A stretch of 11,249 nt of DNA, taken from IMG/VR virus record IMGVR_UViG_2859793810_000003; one strand, 5' to 3'. The position numbers and the translations under genes were made by a program. The stretch is from a virus. Lineage: Duplodnaviria > Heunggongvirae > Uroviricota > Caudoviricetes. Under the pieces are notes generated by a model. The model worked only from the letters and a program-made list of their open reading frames with translations. It was not told the origin of the DNA and searched no databases. Shown piece after piece: positions 863 to 11,249 of the stretch; positions within the stretch are counted from its first letter, which is position 1; each line of letters opens with the position of its first letter.

Positions 863-1169
863 CTGACATGCTAAAGCAAAAAATAGATGAATAAGTTGAG
901 TTGTGCATATGTAGCCTGACCGTCACAAAGTATATGGTGTCTGTACCAGTAAGATGATGGCCGGACTCTTTAAAAAAGAGCTGACCTGCACAATACAGGA
1001 TGGACTTAGCAATGGCTGCTCCTGGCACAAAGCGGACAGTGATCACCGTTCTTACGACTACTTTCTGACTTCCTTCGTGACTTGCCCTAAGCATGTTTGA
1101 AGTGGCACACTGAATTTGGCCACCTGAACAGAGGTGATATGCTCACCTCAGAACAACACAGGTGCTCCA

Positions 1170-2338
<1,169 letters not shown>

Positions 2339-2397: not shown

Positions 2398-2637
2398 ATG
2401 GGTAGCATTAACCTGCGTATTGACGATGAACTTAAAGCGCGTTCTTACGCCGCGCTTGAAAAAATGGGTGTAACTCCTTCTGAAGCGCTTCGTCTCATGC
2501 TCGAGTATATCGCTGACAATGAACGCTTGCCGTTCAAACAGACACTCCTGAGTGATGAAGATGCTGAACTTGTGGAGATAGTGAAAGAACGGCTTCGTAA
2601 TCCTAAGCCAGTACGTGTGACGCTGGATGAACTCTGA
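2398..2637 (+). CDS. relB: RelB antitoxin (type II TA, RelB/DinJ family)
   Basis: 79-aa protein MGSINLRIDDELKARSYA...RNPKPVRVTLDEL, near-identical to E. coli K-12 RelB as I recall it; stop overlaps relE start (ATGA overlap). Confidence 0.93.
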   Translation: MGSINLRIDDELKARSYAALEKMGVTPSEALRLMLEYIADNERLPFKQTLLSDEDAELVEIVKERLRNPKPVRVTLDEL

Positions 2638-2924
2638 TGGCGTATTTTCTGGATTTTGACGAGCGGGCACTAAAGGAATGGCGAAAGCTGGGCTCGACGG
2701 TACGTGAACAGTTGAAAAAGAAGCTGGTTGAAGTACTTGAGTCACCCCGGATTGAAGCAAACAAGCTCCGTGGTATGCCTGATTGTTACAAGATTAAGCT
2801 CCGGTCTTCAGGCTATCGCCTTGTATACCAGGTTATAGACGAGAAAGTTGTCGTTTTCGTGATTTCTGTTGGGAAAAGAGAACGCTCGGAAGTATATAGC
2901 GAGGCGGTCAAACGCATTCTCTGA
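2637..2924 (+). CDS. relE: RelE toxin (ribosome-dependent mRNA endonuclease)
   Basis: 95-aa protein MAYFLDFDERALKEWRKL...SEVYSEAVKRIL, recognised as K-12 RelE; translationally coupled to relB. Confidence 0.93.
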   Translation: MAYFLDFDERALKEWRKLGSTVREQLKKKLVEVLESPRIEANKLRGMPDCYKIKLRSSGYRLVYQVIDEKVVVFVISVGKRERSEVYSEAVKRIL

Positions 2925-2995
2925 ACCAAAGCATGACATCTCTGTTTCGCACCGAAGGTGACACTTCTGCTTTGCGTTGACAGGAGAAGCAGGCT

Positions 2996-3151
2996 ATGAA
3001 GCAGCAAAAGGCGATGTTAATCGCCCTGATCGTCATCTGTTTAACCGTCATAGTGACGGCACTGGTAACGAGGAAAGACCTCTGCGAGGTACGAATCCGA
3101 ACCGGCCAGACGGAGGTCGCTGTCTTCACAGCTTACGAACCTGAGGAGTAA
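2996..3151 (+). CDS. hokD: Hok-family type I toxin HokD (RelF), 51 aa
   Basis: Not in the ORF track (below length cut-off). Own translation: MKQQKAMLIALIVICLTVIVTALVTRKDLCEVRIRTGQTEVAVFTAYEPEE, a Hok-family membrane peptide; position downstream of relBE matches the K-12 relBEF arrangement. Confidence 0.85.
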   Translation: MKQQKAMLIALIVICLTVIVTALVTRKDLCEVRIRTGQTEVAVFTAYEPEE

Positions 3152-3220
3152 GAGACCCGGCGAGTGAGAAATCCCTCGCCACCTCTGATGTGGCAGGCAT
3201 CCTCAACGCACCCGCACTTA

Positions 3221-3250
3221 ACCCGCTTCGGCGGGTTTTTGTTTTTATTT
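3221..3250 (+). terminator. Rho-independent terminator downstream of hokD
   Basis: Hairpin cccgc-ttcg-gcggg followed by TTTTTGTTTTTATTTT. Confidence 0.6.
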
Positions 3251-3368
3251 TCAACGCATTTGAAGTTCTGGATGGTGCCGGAATAGAATCAAAAATACTT
3301 AAGTAGCGCGCAGGGATAAAAGGGATGGACCCCGAACAGGGGAGTGCTACTTATCTGGAAGGATTCTG

Positions 3369-3620
3369 ATGATGAACATCGAAGAACTGCGTAAAATTTT
3401 TTGTGAAGATGGCCTCTATGCTGTGTGCGTTGAAAATGGAAATATTGTTAGTCATTACCGCATTGTGTGTTTGCAAAAAAATGGGGCTGCGTTAATTAAT
3501 TTTGTGGATGCCCGAGTGACGGACGGATTTATCTTGCGCGACGGTGAGTTTGTCACTTCATTACAGGCATTGAAAGAGATCGGAATAAAAGCTGGCTTTT
3601 CTGCTTTTTCAGAAGAATAA
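3369..3620 (+). CDS. rem: Small prophage protein, Rem-like (Qin prophage rem), function unknown
   Basis: 83-aa ORF with Shine-Dalgarno GGAAGGA upstream; sequence and position (between hokD and ydfU-like gene) match my recollection of K-12 rem; symbol from memory. Confidence 0.6.
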   Translation: MMNIEELRKIFCEDGLYAVCVENGNIVSHYRIVCLQKNGAALINFVDARVTDGFILRDGEFVTSLQALKEIGIKAGFSAFSEE

Positions 3621-3686
3621 ACTCATCTACAATCTTGCGCGGGGCTGAACTCCCGCTGAGTAACACCGTGCCACCGGAGAAAACCG

Positions 3687-3887
3687 ATGGCACGCAACGC
3701 AAAATATTACAATCATGATAATTCGACCGTTCTTGCCCACACGCACGAGCGGTATTCTCACGCATTTAAGTCAGACTGGTACCAGCATCCCTCATGCACT
3801 GAAGAACAGGCCGAATGGCTTATTCAGTGTTACCGCAGGCGCGGATGCGAGGTTAAAAAAGCCCTTAGCCTCGACTACCGTCACTAG
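3687..3887 (+). CDS. Hypothetical small phage protein (66 aa, Cys/His-containing)
   Basis: ORF with Shine-Dalgarno GGAGA 8 nt upstream of the ATG; not recognised. Confidence 0.4.
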   Translation: MARNAKYYNHDNSTVLAHTHERYSHAFKSDWYQHPSCTEEQAEWLIQCYRRRGCEVKKALSLDYRH

Positions 3888-3966
3888 ATAATCTCCGTCA
3901 GGCTCCCTTACTCCGAACAGCCACCGCGTCCGTCCCGCACATTCCAGCAACGGATCTGGAGGTAAC

Positions 3967-5016
3967 GTGCGGGTATTACTTCGACCTGTTCTGGTTCCGG
4001 AACTCGGGCTGGTGGTCCTTAAGCCCGGTCGTGAATCCATGCCGGTATTCCACAATACCCGGGTACTGGTGGAGCCGGAACCGAAAAGCATGCGTAATCT
4101 GCCGTCCGGGGTCGTTCCTGCCGTTCGCCAGCCGCTAGTGGAAGACAAAACATTGCTGCCGTTTTTCAGTAACGCACGGGTGATTCGTGCTGCTGGTGGT
4201 GCTGGCGCATTGTCTGACTGGCTGTTGCGCCATATTAAATCCTGCCAGTGGCCACACGGCGATTATCATCACAGCGAAACCGTCATTCACCGTTATGGTA
4301 CCGGCGCAATGGTATTGTGCTGGCACTGCGACAACCAGCTGCGTGACCAGACATCCGAATCACTCGAGCAACTTGCTCATCAAAACCTGTCAGCATGGAT
4401 GATTGACGTCATCGGTCACGCAATAAGCGGTACGCAGGAGCGTGAATTATCTCTGGCTGAATTATCCTGGTGGGCGGTCCGCAATCAGGTGGCGGACGCG
4501 CTACCGGAAGCGGTATTACGTCGTTCGCTGGGGTTGCGTGCGGAAAAAATCCGCTCAATGTACCGTGAAAGCGACATCGTGCCGGGAGAGCAGACCGCCA
4601 CCAGCATACTGAAGCAGCGCACAAAAAATCTTGCGCCGCTGCCTCACGCCCACCAGCAACAGAACCCACAACAGGAAAAGACGGTGGTCAGCATTGCCGT
4701 TGATCCTGAGTCTCCGGAATCTTTCATGAAACGACCTAAACGTCGCCGCTGGGTTAACGAGAAATACAAACGCTGGGTGAAGACACAGCCGTGTGCGTGT
4801 TGTGGTAAGCCAGCCGACGATCCCCATCACCTGATTGGTCATGGTCAGGGCGGAATGGGGACCAAATCTCACGATATTTTCACGCTACCGCTGTGTCGGG
4901 AGCATCACAACGAGCTTCATGCGGATCCTCTGGCGTTCGAAGAAAAGCATGGTTCTCAGGTTGATTTAATTTTTCGTTTTCTTGATCACGCCTTTGCAAC
5001 TGGCGTGCTTGGGTAA
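3967..5016 (+). CDS. ydfU: YdfU-like DUF968 prophage protein with C-terminal Cys/His (HNH-like) motif
   Basis: 349-aa ORF, GTG start preceded by GGAGG; N-terminus MRVLLRPVLVPELGLVVLKPG and overall sequence recalled as K-12 YdfU; C-terminus contains CACCGKPADDPHHLIGHG...CREHHNELH. Confidence 0.75.
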   Translation: MRVLLRPVLVPELGLVVLKPGRESMPVFHNTRVLVEPEPKSMRNLPSGVVPAVRQPLVEDKTLLPFFSNARVIRAAGGAGALSDWLLRHIKSCQWPHGDYHHSETVIHRYGTGAMVLCWHCDNQLRDQTSESLEQLAHQNLSAWMIDVIGHAISGTQERELSLAELSWWAVRNQVADALPEAVLRRSLGLRAEKIRSMYRESDIVPGEQTATSILKQRTKNLAPLPHAHQQQNPQQEKTVVSIAVDPESPESFMKRPKRRRWVNEKYKRWVKTQPCACCGKPADDPHHLIGHGQGGMGTKSHDIFTLPLCREHHNELHADPLAFEEKHGSQVDLIFRFLDHAFATGVLG

Positions 5017-5028
5017 AAGAGGTGACTG

Positions 5029-5385
5029 ATGCTCATAGATTTGGTTTTACCTTACCCGCCGACGGTGAACACTTACTGGCGACGCCGTGGCAGCACATAT
5101 TTTATCTCGGAGGAGGGAAAGCGTTATCGCCGGGCTGTGGCGCTTATTGTTCGCCAGCAGCGGCTGAAATTAAGCCTGTCCGGAAGGCTGGCGATAAAGG
5201 TGATTGCAGAGCCACCGGATAAGCGTCGTCGCGACCTGGACAATATCCTGAAAGCACCGCTGGATGCGCTGACGCATGCGGGAGTGTTAATGGACGATGA
5301 GCAGTTTGATGAAATCAATATCGTTCGTGGTCAGCCAGTATCTGGTGGACGTCTGGGGGTGAAGATTTACCCCATAATGCATTAA
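5029..5385 (+). CDS. rusA: RusA-family Holliday junction resolvase
   Basis: 118-aa ORF with Shine-Dalgarno AAGAGGTGA; motif PDKRRRDLDNILKAPLDALTHAGVLMDDEQ matches the RusA catalytic region (K-12 RusA has PDRRRRDLDN...DALT). Confidence 0.85.
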   Translation: MLIDLVLPYPPTVNTYWRRRGSTYFISEEGKRYRRAVALIVRQQRLKLSLSGRLAIKVIAEPPDKRRRDLDNILKAPLDALTHAGVLMDDEQFDEINIVRGQPVSGGRLGVKIYPIMH

Positions 5386-5399
5386 GAGCAGGTCAAAAA

Positions 5400-6221
5400 A
5401 TGAAACTGGAAGATTTACCGAAATACTACTCCCCAAAATCCCCTGGCCTGACCGATGCATCGGCCTCAACGTCAAAAGATGCGCTGAGTATCACTGATGT
5501 GATGGCCGCGCAGGGCATGACACAGAATCGGGCTGAGATGGGTTTTTCTGCGTTCCTGGGGAAAATGGGCATCAGTATGAATGACAGGGCGCGGGCAACA
5601 GAATTACTGGCAGATTATGCACTCAGTCGGTGCGATCGTGTGGCGGCGTTGAGAAAACTTCCGGCAGAAATAAAACCGGTAGTGATGCGCATTATGGCTT
5701 CGTACGCTTTTGAGGATTATGCCCGCAGCGCAGCGAGTAAAAAGCAGTGCCCTTGTTGCTATGGGGAAAAATTTATTGAAAGCATAGTTTTTACAAACAA
5801 GATCCAGTATCCGGATGGTAAGCCGCCGGTATGGGCAAAGTGTACGAAAGGTGTGTATCCGTTTTACTGGGAAGAATGGAAAAAAGTCAGGGAGGTGGTA
5901 AAAGTTGCCTGTCCGGAGTGTGGCGGAAAGGGTGAGGTTTCCACCGCCTGTAAGGATTGCCGTGGGCGTGGTGTCGCCATTCATCGTGAAGAGTCGGTAA
6001 AACGTGGTATGCCTGTTATCAGAGACTGCCAGCGTTGTGGTGGTCGTGGCTATGAAAGACTACCATCAACGGAGGCATTTAATGCTATATGCGAGGTGAC
6101 AAACCAGATAACACGCGCGTCATGGGAAAAAACAGTTAAGAAATTTTATGATGCGCTGGTGACCCGGTTTGATATTGAAGAAGCATGGGCTGAGCGGCAG
6201 TTAAAAAAGGTAACTAGGTAA
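5400..6221 (+). CDS. Late-gene antiterminator Q-like protein (QuuQ-like), carrying four CxxCxGxG zinc-finger repeats
   Basis: 273-aa ORF positioned between rusA and a PR'/tR'-like module, as for Q in lambdoid phages; N-terminus resembles my recollection of K-12 QuuQ; four CxxCxGxx motifs (CPCCYGEK, CPECGGKG, CKDCRGRG, CQRCGGRG) seen in the translation. Confidence 0.7.
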   Translation: MKLEDLPKYYSPKSPGLTDASASTSKDALSITDVMAAQGMTQNRAEMGFSAFLGKMGISMNDRARATELLADYALSRCDRVAALRKLPAEIKPVVMRIMASYAFEDYARSAASKKQCPCCYGEKFIESIVFTNKIQYPDGKPPVWAKCTKGVYPFYWEEWKKVREVVKVACPECGGKGEVSTACKDCRGRGVAIHREESVKRGMPVIRDCQRCGGRGYERLPSTEAFNAICEVTNQITRASWEKTVKKFYDALVTRFDIEEAWAERQLKKVTR

Positions 6222-6226
6222 CAAGG

Positions 6227-6254
6227 TTGATTTTTCCGGAATCTGTGGTAAATT
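6227..6254 (+). promoter_or_regulatory. PR'-like late promoter (-35 TTGATT, 16-bp spacer, -10 TAAATT) with a lambda-like initial transcribed region
   Basis: TTGATT...TAAATTcgtcataatgatgggcg resembles lambda PR' (TTGACT...TAAATTtgactcaacgatgggtt) as recalled; located immediately after the Q-like gene. Confidence 0.45.
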
Positions 6255-6303
6255 CGTCATAATGATGGGCGTTTTATGCCTGGCGTTAGAAGAGTTTCTA
6301 CAA

Positions 6304-6327
6304 CCCGCCGCTGAGCGGGTTTTTTTA
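6304..6327 (+). terminator. tR'-like rho-independent terminator
   Basis: Hairpin cccgc-cgctga-gcggg followed by seven T; lies about 50 bp downstream of the PR'-like promoter. Confidence 0.6.
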
Positions 6328-6365
6328 TTGCGAAATTAATTACGGACCGTTATTATTCTGCTCCC

Positions 6366-6441
6366 GGCCCTTTAGCTCAGTGGTGAGAGCGAGCGACTCA
6401 TAATCGCCAGGTCGCTGGTTCAAATCCAGCAAGGGCCACCA
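6366..6441 (+). tRNA. ileZ: tRNA-Ile2 (anticodon CAU, lysidine-type), phage-borne ileZ-like
   Basis: 76-nt cloverleaf folded by hand: acceptor GGCCCTT/AAGGGCC, D-stem GCTC/GAGC, anticodon loop CTCATAA (CAT at 6399-6401), T-loop TTCAAAT, 3' CCA encoded. Sequence much closer to E. coli ileX than to Met tRNAs as I recall them. Confidence 0.85.
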
Positions 6442-6542
6442 TCACAAACCGCCATTAGCTTATCAGGAAGAGCAGACGACACGATAACAGGGTTGTTGGT
6501 GCGGGGGGCGGGTCCCCGATGGCGGTCCATTATCGGTATTCA

Positions 6543-6619
6543 GCGTTGTTAGCTCAGCCGGACAGAGCAATTGCCTTCTAAGCAATCGGTCACTGGTTCG
6601 AATCCAGTACAGCGCGCCA
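6543..6619 (+). tRNA. tRNA-Arg (anticodon UCU, reads AGA)
   Basis: 77-nt cloverleaf folded by hand: acceptor GCGTTGT/ACAGCGC, anticodon stem ATTGC/GCAAT, loop CTTCTAA (TCT at 6577-6579), T-loop TTCGAAT, CCA encoded; similar to argU. Confidence 0.85.
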
Positions 6620-6729
6620 TATTCATTCTTCCAGATTCCTTCCGGCAGAGCCTTATACTGAAATATACCTGGCTCAGGATATTGTTGAAAATATTATATA
6701 TTTGTCAAAAATAAAAGTTCTGTTAAGTA

Positions 6730-7083
6730 TTGATTGAGTATTTGTTATACGGTCTAATGGTTTTTTCAGCATTAAGTATTTATCATTCATATGGTGTGGG
6801 TAGAGTGAATATTGATGAGGCGTCGGGGTGTTTCATCCTTAGGCAGCGTATTGATATAGTCAATGCAGCACGAGCAAAGGCCTTCAGCCGTTTGACAGTT
6901 TTGTTCTGTACTCCTGATCGTCTTTCGGGAAGAGACGTTATTATTCTGAATAGTGATGCTATACAGAGGGTTTGCGATGAGTTCATGGTTGCTAATTCAG
7001 AATTATTTGCTCTTGTTCAGGAGTACAACAGAATAGCCAGGACCTGTGGTATGGATGAACTTCGGATTACTCATCTGGGGTAG
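6730..7083 (+). CDS. Hypothetical protein in cargo region (117 aa from a TTG start; first in-frame ATG at 6757)
   Basis: Only the open frame supports this; no convincing Shine-Dalgarno; visibly AT-rich; contains several AGA/AGG/ATA codons. Not recognised. Confidence 0.3.
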   Translation: MIEYLLYGLMVFSALSIYHSYGVGRVNIDEASGCFILRQRIDIVNAARAKAFSRLTVLFCTPDRLSGRDVIILNSDAIQRVCDEFMVANSELFALVQEYNRIARTCGMDELRITHLG

Positions 7084-7475
7084 ATACATATCTGGATTAT
7101 CACCTGTTACGGTAAAAAGTGATTGCTTACTGTTTTTGTTAATGGCATTGCAGCAGCCGGATAATGTCAGTGCCGGCTGACGGTGTGCTGGTGGCGGGTG
7201 TGGTGGTTGTTGCTTTCCCGTTGCTGAAAAAGAAAACGCCAGACTGTTAGCCGGGTATCAGTTAGCGGGAGAAATTTTTAAATACTTCACAATTCAGGCG
7301 GTTGACTGTTGTCTGGTTTGCGGGGAGTTTGTTAAAAGAAACTGGCATGGTGAATCCCCCTGTGCGGAGGGGCAATCAGCGAGTAGGTATATGGGATAAT
7401 CGCGGATTCAGGTGCTGGTACTGAATTCACCGGGAGGCACCCGGCACCATGGAATGGCACATAGCGCCACTCTCC

Positions 7476-7510
7476 AGCCCCTCTCCGGAGGGGCTGTTTA
7501 TATTGATTTT
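7476..7510 (+). terminator. Rho-independent terminator (perfect 8-bp stem)
   Basis: agcccctc-tccg-gaggggct followed by GTTTATATTGATTTT. Confidence 0.55.
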
Positions 7511-7530
7511 GTCAGATGTGAGTAAACTCC

Positions 7531-7866
7531 TTATGGACTTTGTTGTTTTAGTCCATAAGGGCATATTTGCAGAGTGCAACGGTTATTAAAGCATTCATTC
7601 AATACGTTATCTGTATTTGTAGGGCATTCCTGGCTGTTTTTGATTAAATTCCAGAATGTTTTATTGAATGGTACTACGTTGTAAATGGTTACAGGTAGCA
7701 CTTTGTTATTGAGCATGATGCCTGTGTGAGTCAGTGTAAATATACTTTCAGGAGGTAAGAAAGCATCCGATTGATACCAGATTATTAATTTTATTTTACT
7801 CCATATGACTGAAAAAGATATTCCGCATGATGGCTGGATAACTGTATCAATCACAATCCACTTCAT
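7531..7866 (-). CDS. Hypothetical protein, opposite strand to the phage late operon (111 aa, Cys-containing C-terminus)
   Basis: ORF with good Shine-Dalgarno (AAGGAA, 5-nt spacer, ATG) on the minus strand; AT-rich; a perfect 11-bp inverted repeat (7529-7560) overlaps its stop codon. Not recognised. Confidence 0.45.
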
Positions 7867-8110
7867 TTAGTTTCCTTGTTTATGCCTTGCTGGTGATGTT
7901 CTGAAAAGTATAAATGATATTTTTGAATTAAACCATAGAACAGAATTATTTTTCTGATGTTGTTTATTGTTTATTTAAATGCAGGGTGGTTTATATCTCG
8001 TCTTGTAGTTTATCCATGCATATCTGCTTGATAATCAGGTTTTTATTTAAGGTATGGTTTTGTGTTTTTTCTGTATTACATGTCAGGTATTTTAAAGAAT
8101 TATTTTTCAG

Positions 8111-8314
8111 ATGTTGGAAAGAACCATGGCATTTAAACACTATGATGTTGTCAGGGCGGCGCCGCCGTCAGATCTTGCGGAAAAGCTGACACATAAACTG
8201 AAAGAGGGCTGGCAGCCGTTTGGTAGTCCGGTGGCCATAACCCCTTATACCCTGATGCAGGCGATTGCAGCAGAAGGTGATGTGGTGGTCAGTGGTGCAA
8301 CTGAGCCGGAGTGA
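8111..8314 (+). CDS. Small conserved lambdoid late-region protein (family uncertain); likely start at ATG 8126
   Basis: ORF MAFKHYDVVRAAPPSDLAEKLTHKLKEGWQPFGSPVAITPYTLMQAIAAEGDVVVSGATEPE with GGAAAG 4 nt before the 8126 ATG; sequence feels familiar from E. coli prophages but I cannot name the family reliably. Confidence 0.5.
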   Translation: MLERTMAFKHYDVVRAAPPSDLAEKLTHKLKEGWQPFGSPVAITPYTLMQAIAAEGDVVVSGATEPE

Positions 8315-8556
8315 TACTACGTCATCGTACTGGCCCGGCATTCCAGGCCATAAAAGACAGTCTGGCAGTGGGACTAAATGCACTGACGCTGACGGATATT
8401 ACCAAAAATGCAACGTATGGCGTTGAGATAGAAAGTCTGGTGCTGGAGATAAATGCACCGGCATCATCATAAAAAGTGAGCCAGTCAAATGGAAGGTATC
8501 GTTAAACTCACCGGTAGTGTCAGTGGGTCGTCTGAGACGCTTGCATGAGTTATCAG

Positions 8557-8588
8557 AGCCATCAGTAGTTAACTGGTGGCTTTTTTAT
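8557..8588 (+). terminator. Putative rho-independent terminator upstream of the holin gene
   Basis: agccatcag-tagttaa-ctggtggct (one mismatch) followed by TTTTTTATTG. Confidence 0.45.
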
Positions 8589-8621
8589 TGTTGTCAGCTT
8601 CCGGATAACGGGAGACGGGGT

Positions 8622-8782
8622 ATGGACCAGATGGAAAAAATCACAACAGGTGTGTCATACACCACGTCAGCGGTGGGAACGGGCTACTGGTTCCTGCAGT
8701 TGCTGGACAGGGTTTCCCCGTCTCAGTGGGCGGCAATAGGCGTGCTGGGGAGTCTGCTGTTTGGGCTGCTGACATATCTGAC
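8622..8782 (+). pseudogene. Phage-21-type pinholin (S21 family) gene, 3'-truncated by IS insertion; dual-start motif M-D-Q-M
   Basis: [54 protein letters not shown] resembles S21 pinholin ([45 protein letters not shown]... as recalled); Shine-Dalgarno GGAGA upstream; the reading frame runs into the IS600-like right end at 8783 and terminates after 6 IS-derived codons. Confidence 0.8.
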
Positions 8783-9731
8783 TGAGGTGTACTGGCAATA
8801 GCGGACACTACCATTTGTTCTTTTTTTAAGCAGCCATCTGATGATATTTTTCCCTGAAGGCTGCCGGGGAGATATTCCCCAGACGAGAGTGACGACGCTG
8901 ACGATTGTAGAAAATCTCAATGTATTCCCGTATTACTGAGATGGCTTCATCCCGGTTATTAAAACGATAGTGGCTCAGGCTCTCATTTTTCAGCGTTCCC
9001 CAGAAGCTTTCCATCGGAGCGTTGTCGTAACAGTTACCTTTACGCGACATTGATGTTTTCAGACCAGACTGCTCCTGTATGACCCGGTAATCGTATGCGC
9101 AGTACTGTGAACCTCGATCAGAGTGGTGGATTAGCCCGGCAGGTGGGCGCTGGCTCCTGAGCGCCATAAACAGGGCTTTACCTGTCAGCTCTTTTGTCAT
9201 GCGCTCTCCCATGGCGTAGCCGACAATTTCACACGTATAAACATCTTTGATGCCAGCGAGGTACAACCATCCCTCCTGTGTGGCAACATACGTCAGGTCC
9301 GCCACCCAGACCTGATTTGGTGCTGTAGGAGCGAACGTCTGGTTCAGCAGATTTGGCGCAACTGGCAGATTGTGGTTCGGGTTCGTAGTCGCTCTGAACT
9401 TGCGTTTCTGCTTACAGCGTAGCCTCAGCTCCTTACGAAGACGTGCCAGTCGGTCACGACCAACGATGATGCCATTCTCTGCCAGCTCCGTCTGGAGCCG
9501 CCGGGTTCCATATGTTTCGCGAGTGCGGATATGTGCCACCTTAATCTCCGGTTTTAGCCGCTCATCACTTTGTTTTCTGTCTGAGGGTTCATGCTGTACC
9601 CAGTTGTAATAACCGCTCCTGGATACACCAAATACCTGACACATCGCTTCAATGGGAAATTGTTGTCGCCATTGTTCGATTAACGCGTATTTTTCAGCGA
9701 CTCCTGTGCAAAATACGCTGTTGCTTTTTTT
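8783..9731 (-). mobile_element. IS3-family insertion sequence (IS600-like), second copy, inverted relative to the first; left portion (IRL and most of orfA) missing, truncated by IS1
   Basis: Right end identical to the copy at 1-862 up to the CA terminus (reverse complement at 8783); the OrfAB reading frame continues upstream of the orfB ATG (…KYALIEQWRQQFPIEAMCQVF) and is cut at 9731 directly at an A-rich slippery-like heptamer. Confidence 0.85.
8826..9644 (-). CDS. IS3-family transposase OrfB (IS600-like), copy 2
   Basis: 272-aa ORF, one amino-acid different from the ORF at 1-819. Confidence 0.85.
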   Translation of the reverse strand: MCQVFGVSRSGYYNWVQHEPSDRKQSDERLKPEIKVAHIRTRETYGTRRLQTELAENGIIVGRDRLARLRKELRLRCKQKRKFRATTNPNHNLPVAPNLLNQTFAPTAPNQVWVADLTYVATQEGWLYLAGIKDVYTCEIVGYAMGERMTKELTGKALFMALRSQRPPAGLIHHSDRGSQYCAYDYRVIQEQSGLKTSMSRKGNCYDNAPMESFWGTLKNESLSHYRFNNRDEAISVIREYIEIFYNRQRRHSRLGNISPAAFREKYHQMAA

Positions 9732-9746
9732 GGTAATGACTCCAAC

Positions 9747-10250
9747 TTACTGATAGTGTTTTATGTTCAGATAATGCCCGATGACCTTGTCATGCAGCTC
9801 CACCGATTTTGAGAACGACAGTGACTTCCGTACCAGCCTTGCCAGATGTTGTCTCAGATTCAGATTATGTCGCTCAATGCGCTGAGTGTAACGCTTGCTG
9901 ATAACGTGCAGCTTTCCCTTCAGGCGTGATTCATACAGCGGACAGCCATCCGTCATCCATACCACGACCTCAAAGGCCGACAGCAGGCTCAGAAGACGCT
10001 CCAGTGTGGCCAGAGTGCGTTCACCGAAGACGTGCGCCACAACCGTCCTCCGTATCCTGTCATACGCGTAAAACAGCCAGCGCTGACGTGATTTAGCACC
10101 GACGTAGCCCCAATGTTCGTCCATTTCAGCGCAGACAATCACATCACTGCCCGGTTGTATGCGCGAGGTTACCGACTGCGGCCTGAGTTTTTTAAGTGAC
10201 GTAAAACCGTGTTGAGGCCAACGCCCATAATGCGTGCACTGGCGCGACAT
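9747..10250 (-). CDS. insB: IS1 InsB (catalytic part of the InsAB' transposase, made by -1 frameshift)
   Basis: 167-aa protein ...[38 protein letters not shown]... recognised as IS1 InsB; overlaps insA in the -1 frame. Confidence 0.95.
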
Positions 10251-10444
10251 CCGACGCCATTCATGGCCATATCAATGATTTTCTGGTGCGTACCGGGCTG
10301 AGAGGCGGTGTAAGTGAACTGTAGTTGCCATGTTTTACGGCAATGAGAGCAGAGATAGCGCTGATGTCCGGCAGTGCTTTTGCCGTTACGCACCACGCCT
10401 TCAGTAGCGGAGCAGGAAGGACATCTGATGGAAATGGAAGCCAC
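10169..10444 (-). CDS. insA: IS1 InsA (transposition repressor, N-terminal part of InsAB')
   Basis: 91-aa protein [43 protein letters not shown]... recognised as IS1 InsA. Confidence 0.95.
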
Positions 10445-10499: not shown

Positions 10500-11249
10500 C
10501 TGGTTGTAGACTTGTCTCAGCATATAAGTTGCTGGAATGATTACGGCGGCTGGTACGACACTGATCATATAAACCTGGTACAAGGCTCAGCTTTCGCAGG
10601 CTCCCTACAGTCATATAAAGGATCGCTGTACTGGAATAATGTGACCTACCCCTTCCCGTTGACGACAAATACCAACGTATTGGATATTGGTGATAAGACA
10701 CCGATGCCATTACCGTTAAAACTCTATATTACCCCAGTTGGGGCGGCCGGTGGAGTTGTCATAAAAGCGGGGGAAGTCATTGCCCGTATTCATATGTATA
10801 AAATTGCAACATTAGGAAGCGGAAATCCGCGTAATTTTACGTGGAATATTATTTCAAATAACAGTGTTGTTATGCCAACAGGCGGCTGCACCGTTGATAG
10901 TCGTAATGTCACCGTGGATCTCCCGGACTTTCCTGGAAGCGCAGAAATACCCCTTGGCGTATATTGCTCAAGCGAACAAAAGCTCTCATTTTATCTTTCG
11001 GGTGCCACCACTGACAGTAGCCGACAAGTGTTTGCTAACACAGCACCTGATGCAACAAAAGCATCGGGAGTGGGTGTCACTCTAATGCGTAATGGAAAAA
11101 TACTGGCTACGGGAGAAAATGTCTCCCTGGGGACAGTAAATAAAAGCAAAGTACCTCTGGGTTTAAGCGCAACCTATGGACAAACAGGAAACAAGGTTTC
11201 AGCCGGAACCGTCCAGTCAGTCATTGGTGTCACTTTTATCTATGAATAA
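10500..11249 (+). pseudogene. FimH-like fimbrial tip adhesin gene (chaperone-usher family), 5'-truncated by IS1; 3' end and stop codon intact at window end
   Basis: The frame is open from the IS1 junction; [17 protein letters not shown]...[24 protein letters not shown]...[12 protein letters not shown] aligns by eye with E. coli FimH (LVVDLSTQIFCHNDYPE...VVPTGGCDVSARDVTVTLPDYPGS...VQSIIGVTFVYQ); the signal peptide and start of the lectin domain are missing. Confidence 0.8.

Follow-up and report, generated by a model that had tools for sequence, protein, structure and literature searches.

A lambda-type late switch beside a tRNA cassette with an altered argN in a Qin/mEp460-like prophage

The 11,249-nucleotide stretch of viral DNA considered here, IMG/VR record IMGVR_UViG_2859793810_000003 (from this point on, the window), very probably carries the late control region of a lambdoid prophage of the Qin/mEp460 type, in which a lambda-type late switch and a tRNA cassette stand side by side as two independently shuffled modules. 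In the first module (5400-6328), a gene for an antiterminator of the Q-lambda family is followed within 6 bp by its cognate late promoter, PR', and then by the terminator tR'. RNA polymerase containing sigma-70 would be expected to pause near +16, as directed by the initial transcribed sequence AATGATGGG; in the absence of Q, transcription from PR' would end after some 67 nt, whereas Q would render the polymerase termination-resistant and let it continue into the genes beyond. The second module (approximately 6326-6627) has its own sigma-70 promoter and comprises tRNA-Ile2(CAU) and tRNA-Arg(UCU), between which lies an argN apparently disabled when its anticodon arm and T loop were replaced. 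The intact pair is predicted to decode AUA and AGA/AGG, codons that E. coli seldom uses but that are enriched in the genes of this prophage. Both tRNAs would probably be made from their own promoter in the lysogen and boosted by Q read-through after induction. Unrelated cargo sits in the slot after argO in place of stx2AB, and insertion sequence (IS) elements have cut the holin gene and removed the rest of the late operon from this prophage copy.

The window is 99% identical to Escherichia phage mEp460_ev081 (LR597641) over 5400-7400 and 96.6% identical over 2982-7451. It shares with this phage, and with Qin-like regions such as those of NZ_CP195401 and NZ_CP015834, the series hokD, rem, ydfU, rusA, Q, tRNA-Ile, tRNA-Arg and DUF3927. 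The order Q, PR', tR', tRNA-Ile2, tRNA-Arg(UCU), as set out in a preliminary description of this DNA, is recovered by direct reading, ARAGORN and a terminator scan. The module is already known from the annotated sequences of a cultured phage and of more than 1000 E. coli genomes, and it is ordinary in its makeup: a lambda-type late switch joined to a widespread tRNA cassette, in the commonest form of that cassette (two tRNAs plus a remnant), without stx and in a degraded prophage.

The Q-PR'-tR' module

The open reading frame (ORF) at 5400-6221 scores 183.6 bits against Pfam model PF03589, 'Antitermination protein Q' (Antiterm), for which the cut-off is 26.7, and a phmmer search of PDB returns Q-lambda (7UBM) with an E-value of 3.5e-40. 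The homology to lambda Q covers both halves of the protein, with residues 1-113 corresponding to residues 1-113 of Q-lambda and residues 182-273 to residues 116-207. Unlike lambda Q, the window protein has an insert of about 68 aa between these halves (residues 114-181), which contributes two extra CxxC motifs for a total of four; a match to the DnaJ CXXCXGXG zinc finger falls below the Pfam threshold.

The -35 element of PR' begins 6 bp past the Q stop codon, and the -10 element, TAAATT, is that of lambda PR' letter for letter. The similarity continues into the transcribed region: the motif TAAATT-N-G-N-C-NN-AA-N-GATGGG spans 6249-6269 in the window and, in matching register, 776-796 of the lambda locus (L125) at PR'. 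A motif search was used for this comparison in place of a MAFFT global alignment, which misaligned the two regions owing to their different transcript lengths. The combined promoter and pause motif common to lambda, TAAATTNGNCNNAANGATGGG, occurs once in the window and in none of 200 shuffled sequences, which bears out the earlier claim of a lambda-like PR' and initial transcribed sequence. Over the pause region itself, lambda reads AACGATGGG, most relatives read TAACGATGGG, like lambda, and the window reads TAATGATGGG. In lambda, a -10-like element together with GGG induces the sigma-70-dependent pause at which Q loads. By analogy, we infer that transcription from PR' starts at A6261 and that it is subject to the same pause and to Q dependence; the 16-nt spacer of PR' is presumed to be the Q-binding element.

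The tR'-like terminator of the preliminary description is likewise present, as a hairpin (6302-6321) with five G-C pairs and a T run behind it; the terminator scan and the minimum-energy fold both show it. In the predicted short RNA, the terminator would be preceded by two other hairpins, one at the 5' end and one small (-21 kcal/mol, z = -2.0). No Rfam family is matched by the PR'-tR' transcript at gathering score, the sub-threshold scores being 22-26 bits for Trp_leader and 16.8 bits for isrK. Identification with a known small RNA (sRNA), namely Trp_leader, isrK or P9, was rejected, as the Rfam scores are sub-threshold and are driven by the terminator hairpin. The terminated PR' RNA of lambda (6S) is about 194 nt long, as opposed to the roughly 67 nt predicted for its counterpart in the window, and orf-64 and S follow in lambda where the tRNA cassette follows here.

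To compare related modules, the 150 nt downstream of Q were taken from all fetched loci with a Q at least 89% identical, yielding 20 distinct sequences. The string GTTGATTTTTCC[C/G]GAAT[C/T]TGTGGTAAATT is kept in 18 of these; the other two begin at or just past the stop codon, with the first G cut off or replaced. Promoter, initial transcribed sequence and terminator are thus kept downstream of every Q homologue at this level of identity. A conserved GTTTTATGCCTG[A/G]CGTTAGAAG follows the initial transcribed sequence and precedes the terminator hairpin, which differs between loci in the letters of its stem and loop. Beyond the T run of tR', some loci pass directly into the tRNA cassette, others into an unrelated ORF. 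This divergence implies that Q, PR' and tR' form one inherited unit ending at about 6326, and the three travel together as such. At the sequence level, three elements of a Q-lambda-type module are present, namely a Q-lambda homologue, a sigma-70 promoter with pause element, and an intrinsic terminator downstream.

Several observations weigh against the reading of the region as a working lambda-type switch beside a separate tRNA cassette. PR' is absent from the output of a generic consensus promoter scan, as it matches only 8 of 12 consensus positions. The proposed start, pause and Q dependence are read off the lambda register, and yet the presumed Q-binding spacer between -35 and -10 differs from that of lambda in sequence and in length (16 nt as opposed to 17 nt). 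IS elements replace the early region upstream, so that Q may never be expressed in the present genome. In the second module, the core of the argN remnant, although about eight times as polymorphic as ileZ, is less polymorphic than the spacers adjacent to it.

Table 1. Features of the late-regulatory region, with positions in the window
Feature	Positions	Strand	Description and basis
Antiterminator Q gene	5400..6221	+	273 aa, Q-lambda family; Pfam PF03589, PDB 7UBM; RefSeq name 'antitermination protein'
Late promoter PR'	6227..6254	+	-35 TTGATT at 6227-6232; 16-nt spacer; extended -10 TGnTAAATT, -10 hexamer at 6249-6254; read directly
Predicted start site and sigma-70-dependent pause element	6261..6269	+	A6261 by lambda register; AATGAT, then GGG
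Predicted terminated PR' transcript	6261..6328	+	about 66-68 nt; positional counterpart of lambda 6S RNA and of StxS
Intrinsic terminator tR'	6302..6328	+	stem AACCCGC/GCGGGTT, 6-nt loop, T run; terminator scan and fold
Cassette sigma-70 promoter	6328..6356	+	TTGCGA, 17 nt, TATTAT; promoter scan 9/12; activity predicted
tRNA-Ile2, ileZ allele	6366..6441	+	anticodon CAU, CCA end encoded; ARAGORN, Rfam, PGAP tRNA-Ile
Broken argN, pseudo-tRNA-Arg	6449..6529	+	alignment to argN of Stx2 phages; no tRNA model call
tRNA-Arg, argO allele	6543..6619	+	anticodon UCU, reads AGA and AGG, CCA end encoded; ARAGORN, Rfam
Cargo slot	6628..7286	+	659 bp of AT-rich DNA; TciB-like/DUF3927 small ORF with premature stop

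The tRNA cassette and its argN remnant

Exactly two tRNAs are found by ARAGORN in the window, with anticodons CAT and TCT (Table 1), in keeping with the tRNA-Ile2 and tRNA-Arg(UCU) of the preliminary description. Their Rfam tRNA scores, 72.5 and 68.0 bits, are far above the gathering score of 29, and PGAP annotates the pair as tRNA-Ile and tRNA-Arg. ARAGORN itself labels the first gene tRNA-Met, as do many GenBank phage records; were it an elongator tRNA-Met, the cassette would supply no AUA decoder. Met and Ile2, however, are not separable in ARAGORN by anticodon alone. The gene is identical to ileZ of the Stx2a phage Stx2a_WGPS8 (76/76) and matches K-12 ileX, a tRNA-Ile(CAU), at 68 of 76 positions, with no difference in the anticodon arm. 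The names tRNA-Ile or ileZ are also given by PGAP and in curated records of Stx phages. On account of these identities and the PGAP call, the first tRNA is taken to be tRNA-Ile2, which would read AUA after lysidine modification, and the tRNA-Met alternative is very improbable. The argO allele differs from that of Stx2a_WGPS8 at one position, giving acceptor pair 4-69 as U-G rather than U-A.

E. coli averages per 1000 codons are roughly 4-5 for ATA, 2 for AGA and 1 for AGG. The corresponding values in the prophage ORFs of the window are 16, 5.3 and 4.5, and this several-fold excess over typical E. coli usage fits the usual rare-codon rationale for phage tRNAs. An IraM-like anti-adapter ORF (7531-7866, minus strand; named from the homologous RefSeq locus), which lies on the opposite strand within the late region, uses ATA for 6 of its 111 codons and would lean heavily on tRNA-Ile2. 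In ON470586 and E. coli NZ_CP080235, the cassette is annotated with a 'tRNA-Pseudo-TAT' or 'tRNA-OTHER'; these labels hint that the anticodon varies further; a UAU, for one, would need no lysidine to read AUA.

The predicted promoter of the cassette ends its -10 element 10 nt 5' of the mature ileZ end, which places the predicted start about 3 nt before that end. An experimentally determined start site for the tRNA cassette has been reported in the Stx2a prophage of Sakai (Sy et al. 2020, PMC7547250). Across 118 copies of ileZ in the fetched loci, the letters of the -10 TATTAT are kept in 94-100% and those of the -35 TTG in 92-98%. This set includes an upstream variant that differs in the rest of the 40 nt and still presents TTGATT, 17 nt and TATTAT. 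It could be argued that the tRNAs have no promoter of their own and are found only in the Q-antiterminated PR' transcript, which would make them strictly late and silent in the lysogen: they come right after tR' and share its strand, and the proposed promoter matches just 9 of 12 consensus positions, in a region with 5 such sites as compared with 3.0 +/- 1.9 in shuffles. Against this, the -35 TTG, the -10 TATTAT and the 17-bp spacing are kept in 92-100% of the 118 copies, the divergent upstream variants included, and the promoter accompanies the cassette behind different Q modules. We therefore consider strictly late expression unlikely; the conserved promoter, together with the start site in Sakai, suggests that the tRNAs are probably made in lysogens from their own promoter as well as by Q read-through.

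Similarity to Stx2 phages begins at 6326 by both megablast and blastn, which marks the left border of the cassette, and ends at 6627, which marks its right border. The preliminary description had attached the tRNAs to the PR' module. Their downstream position stands, but the block is a separate mobile cassette that moves as a unit with its own promoter, irrespective of the type of Q, and not simply a part of the PR' transcript.

The earlier reading also held that the interval between the two tRNAs, 6442-6542, does not fold as a tRNA and might be a decayed third gene. ARAGORN makes no call at 6449-6529 at default, 95% or 80% thresholds, and 6442-6542 has no Rfam tRNA match even at E <= 10. Aligned to two phages with three tRNAs, 6449-6529 proves to be a remnant of argN. 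It matches their argN exactly or almost exactly in both acceptor strands, the D arm, the 3' T stem and the CCA, and the cloverleaf skeleton is kept. Unrelated sequence stands where the anticodon arm would be, which makes the middle of the gene about five bases longer; the T loop is GGCGGGT rather than TTCGAGT. The third gene is thus confirmed by alignment, but 'decayed' is not the best word for it: since some 45 nt of argN are scrambled between an ileZ and an argO that match the Stx-phage alleles at 99-100%, the damage looks like a segmental replacement and not slow decay by point mutation. The remnant most likely has no decoding function.

Other identities for the remnant were tried and rejected. 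Lowering the ARAGORN threshold to 60% yields a cloverleaf whose anticodon stem has 3 bp and whose anticodon loop has 8 nt (aaca); it is not credible as a non-canonical functional tRNA. The same is true of a tRNA-Cys with a 4-nt intron, returned at an 80% threshold with introns allowed. Nor does the remnant resemble the att scar of an integrase, as the alteration is not limited to the 3' part: the D loop and the anticodon arm's 5' half are changed too. A paper on satellite integration concerns tRNA-Ile2 sites and not the argN remnant.

The remnant is far from rare. Among 5426 complete E. coli genomes, 1254, or about a quarter, have its core, in every case without annotation, as compared with 822 genomes for the core of intact argN. 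Two tRNAs plus a remnant is therefore not unusual, being commoner in these genomes than the form with three tRNAs. Variation of the cassette between three and two tRNAs has been noted in the Stx literature (PMC13641118). RefSeq annotation thus has a gap at a very common argN pseudogene.

To classify argN alleles, viral contigs were scanned for the conserved acceptor strands, which fixes the sample on the acceptor stems. An intact anticodon arm was found with the standard TTCRA T loop at 74 loci and with another T-loop variant at 8 more, whereas 35 loci, including the window itself and two annotated loci, have the window-type remnant. Three loci combine a variant anticodon arm with an intact T loop, and one combines an intact anticodon arm with a variant T loop. 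These single-lesion classes imply that argN alleles recombine. One of the three loci with a variant anticodon arm and an intact T loop, IMG/VR contig L114, has this argN directly upstream of stx2AB (stx2 at 3294-4526; 93.8% to reference Stx2A), from which it follows that argN is lost in toxin phages as well. Among window-type remnants, the core shows changes in the length of a G run, a T-stem deletion and several substitutions. The mean minor-allele frequency is 0.015 in the remnant core, 0.002 in ileZ and 0.04-0.07 in the adjacent spacers, the flanks being dominated by module swapping. The polymorphism of the remnant is compatible with relaxed constraint.

The only loose end with potential for novelty is a non-decoding role for this common, unannotated remnant. 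It might, for instance, be a conserved tRNA-like RNA that serves as a processing scaffold for RNase P and RNase E, securing the maturation of the tRNAs on either side, or as a decoy for nucleases or modification enzymes that target tRNA. Consistent with this, its acceptor, D and T stems and its CCA, all that enzymes of tRNA processing require to recognize a substrate, are intact, with differences confined to the anticodon arm and T loop; it outnumbers intact argN in complete E. coli genomes; 1148 of its records are at least 95% identical; and its core varies less than the neighbouring spacers. Nevertheless, the conservation of the stems is set in part by the search pattern that gathered the loci, and hitch-hiking between two selected tRNAs would give high identity anyway. 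The variation in the G run and the T-stem deletion, with roughly eight times the polymorphism of ileZ at the same loci, also speak against it. The remnant folds about as stably as shuffled sequence (z = -1.1), and the one-lesion recombinants (L031 and L054) fit allele shuffling rather than a co-adapted structure. A conserved scaffold or decoy of this kind is accordingly improbable, and a selected non-decoding tRNA-like RNA, whether it served as a spacer in processing or drew off defence nucleases that target tRNA, is distinctly doubtful. An argN disabled by replacement of a segment remains the preferred reading.

The stx slot and the relation to Stx phages

In agreement with the preliminary description, tblastn searches of the window with Stx2A and Stx2B return chance matches only, with E-values of at least 0.43. 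Blastn comparison to two Stx2 loci (L002 and L025) shows homology stopping at 6627 and restarting at 7287, the interval being filled there by stx2AB. It follows that stx2AB occupies exactly the slot that holds 659 bp of other DNA in the window. This DNA has a full-length match to mEp460_ev081 only. Its TciB-like/DUF3927 ORF (7118-7249, plus strand) has a GAA-to-TAA nonsense mutation at codon 8, and is intact in mEp460_ev081 and in RefSeq strains.

An STnc100 sRNA (Rfam RF02076) lies at 7316-7505 on the plus strand, full length at 124 bits against a gathering score of 47, and ends in a terminator-like hairpin. Because Stx2 homology restarts just upstream of it, STnc100 marks the right edge of the stx slot. 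The insertion slot of stx2AB is thereby fixed between the 3' end of argO and the STnc100 flank. A preprint from 2026 connects STnc100 with the PasD sRNAs of prophages.

The preliminary description saw in the whole module a likeness to Stx phages, to which it ascribed three tRNAs. That number is correct: ileZ, argN and argO are annotated in the GenBank records of Stx2a_WGPS8 (AP012540) and Nil3 (AM051322), and ARAGORN finds them at both loci. The tRNA block is homologous as well. The cassettes of these two phages have the same promoter, order, spacing and borders (6326 and 6627), with ileZ first, argO third, and the promoter between tR' and ileZ. Unlike in the window, the second gene there is an intact argN, a tRNA-Arg(UCG), and stx2AB occupies the place of the 659 bp; neither stxA nor stxB lies downstream of the cassette in the window. 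The likeness does not extend to Q, PR' and tR', which are not of the classic 933W/Stx2 type. The classic Stx2 phages compared have a 144-aa Q of the 933W type, as opposed to the Q-lambda type of the window. When the window is searched by blastn against Stx2a_WGPS8, only 6326-6627 (87.8% identity) and 7287-8283 are aligned, and the PR'-tR' stretch has no similarity to this phage upstream of 6326. In Nil3, tR' is annotated some 120-190 nt past the Q stop, and in Sakai it was mapped 258 nt from PR' (PMC7547250). At least one Stx2-encoding viral contig (L025) has the same type of Q as the window; it is collinear with the window over 3670-6627 at 87%, and its order is Q (89% identical to that of the window), PR'/tR', ileZ-argN-argO and then stx2AB.

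The terminated PR' transcript of Stx phages, StxS, is an Hfq-binding sRNA (Sy et al. 2020, PMC7547250). The predicted short RNA of the window would share its genetic position and its logic, that of a constitutive PR' transcript ended at tR' in the lysogen (PMC7547250). It differs in sequence, as 6227-6325 has no blastn similarity to the PR'-tR' region of the Stx2a phage and is thus not recognizable as an StxS homologue, and in size, as StxS is a 258-nt transcript processed to 74 nt whereas 67 nt are predicted here.

The host prophage and neighbouring genes

The 439-bp module at 6222-6660 is present, at a coverage of at least 80%, in 1232 of the 5426 complete E. coli genomes, with tRNA-Ile and tRNA-Arg in the RefSeq annotation. 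The argN remnant of mEp460_ev081 is the same as that of the window except for one G in the G run; the mEp460_ev081 record leaves its tRNAs unannotated. Unlike this phage, the prophage of the window has a nonsense codon in the TciB-like ORF, is broken by IS3-family and IS1 elements, and has a truncated holin gene. By virtue of these IS elements and the truncated holin, it is a defective Qin-like prophage.

Two IS3-family copies, at 1-869 and 8776-9644, bracket the prophage remnant as 869-bp inverted repeats with 100% identity, each with an ORF of 272 aa bearing an rve domain. The right copy removes the 3' end of a P21-type holin ORF (8517-8801). The exact junction of holin and IS is also found in E. 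coli ECMA0423, which matches the window over 6131-9706 at 99.9%. Between them, the bracketing copies might invert the segment or mobilize it as a composite. Beyond the right copy lie another IS3-family element and an IS1, and then a fimH that lacks its 5' end. The IS1 (insA and insB, 9747-10444, minus strand) is directly followed by the fimH ORF (10512-11249, plus strand), which starts only about 34 positions into the mannose-binding domain profile and appears to have been disrupted by IS1 beside the prophage remnant. On the left, an IS3-family element (1134-2338, plus strand) consists of an HTH_Tnp_1 ORF and an rve ORF, and an ORF for a toxin of the ParE/RelE type (2637-2924, plus strand) lies upstream of the hokD-rem-ydfU-rusA block.

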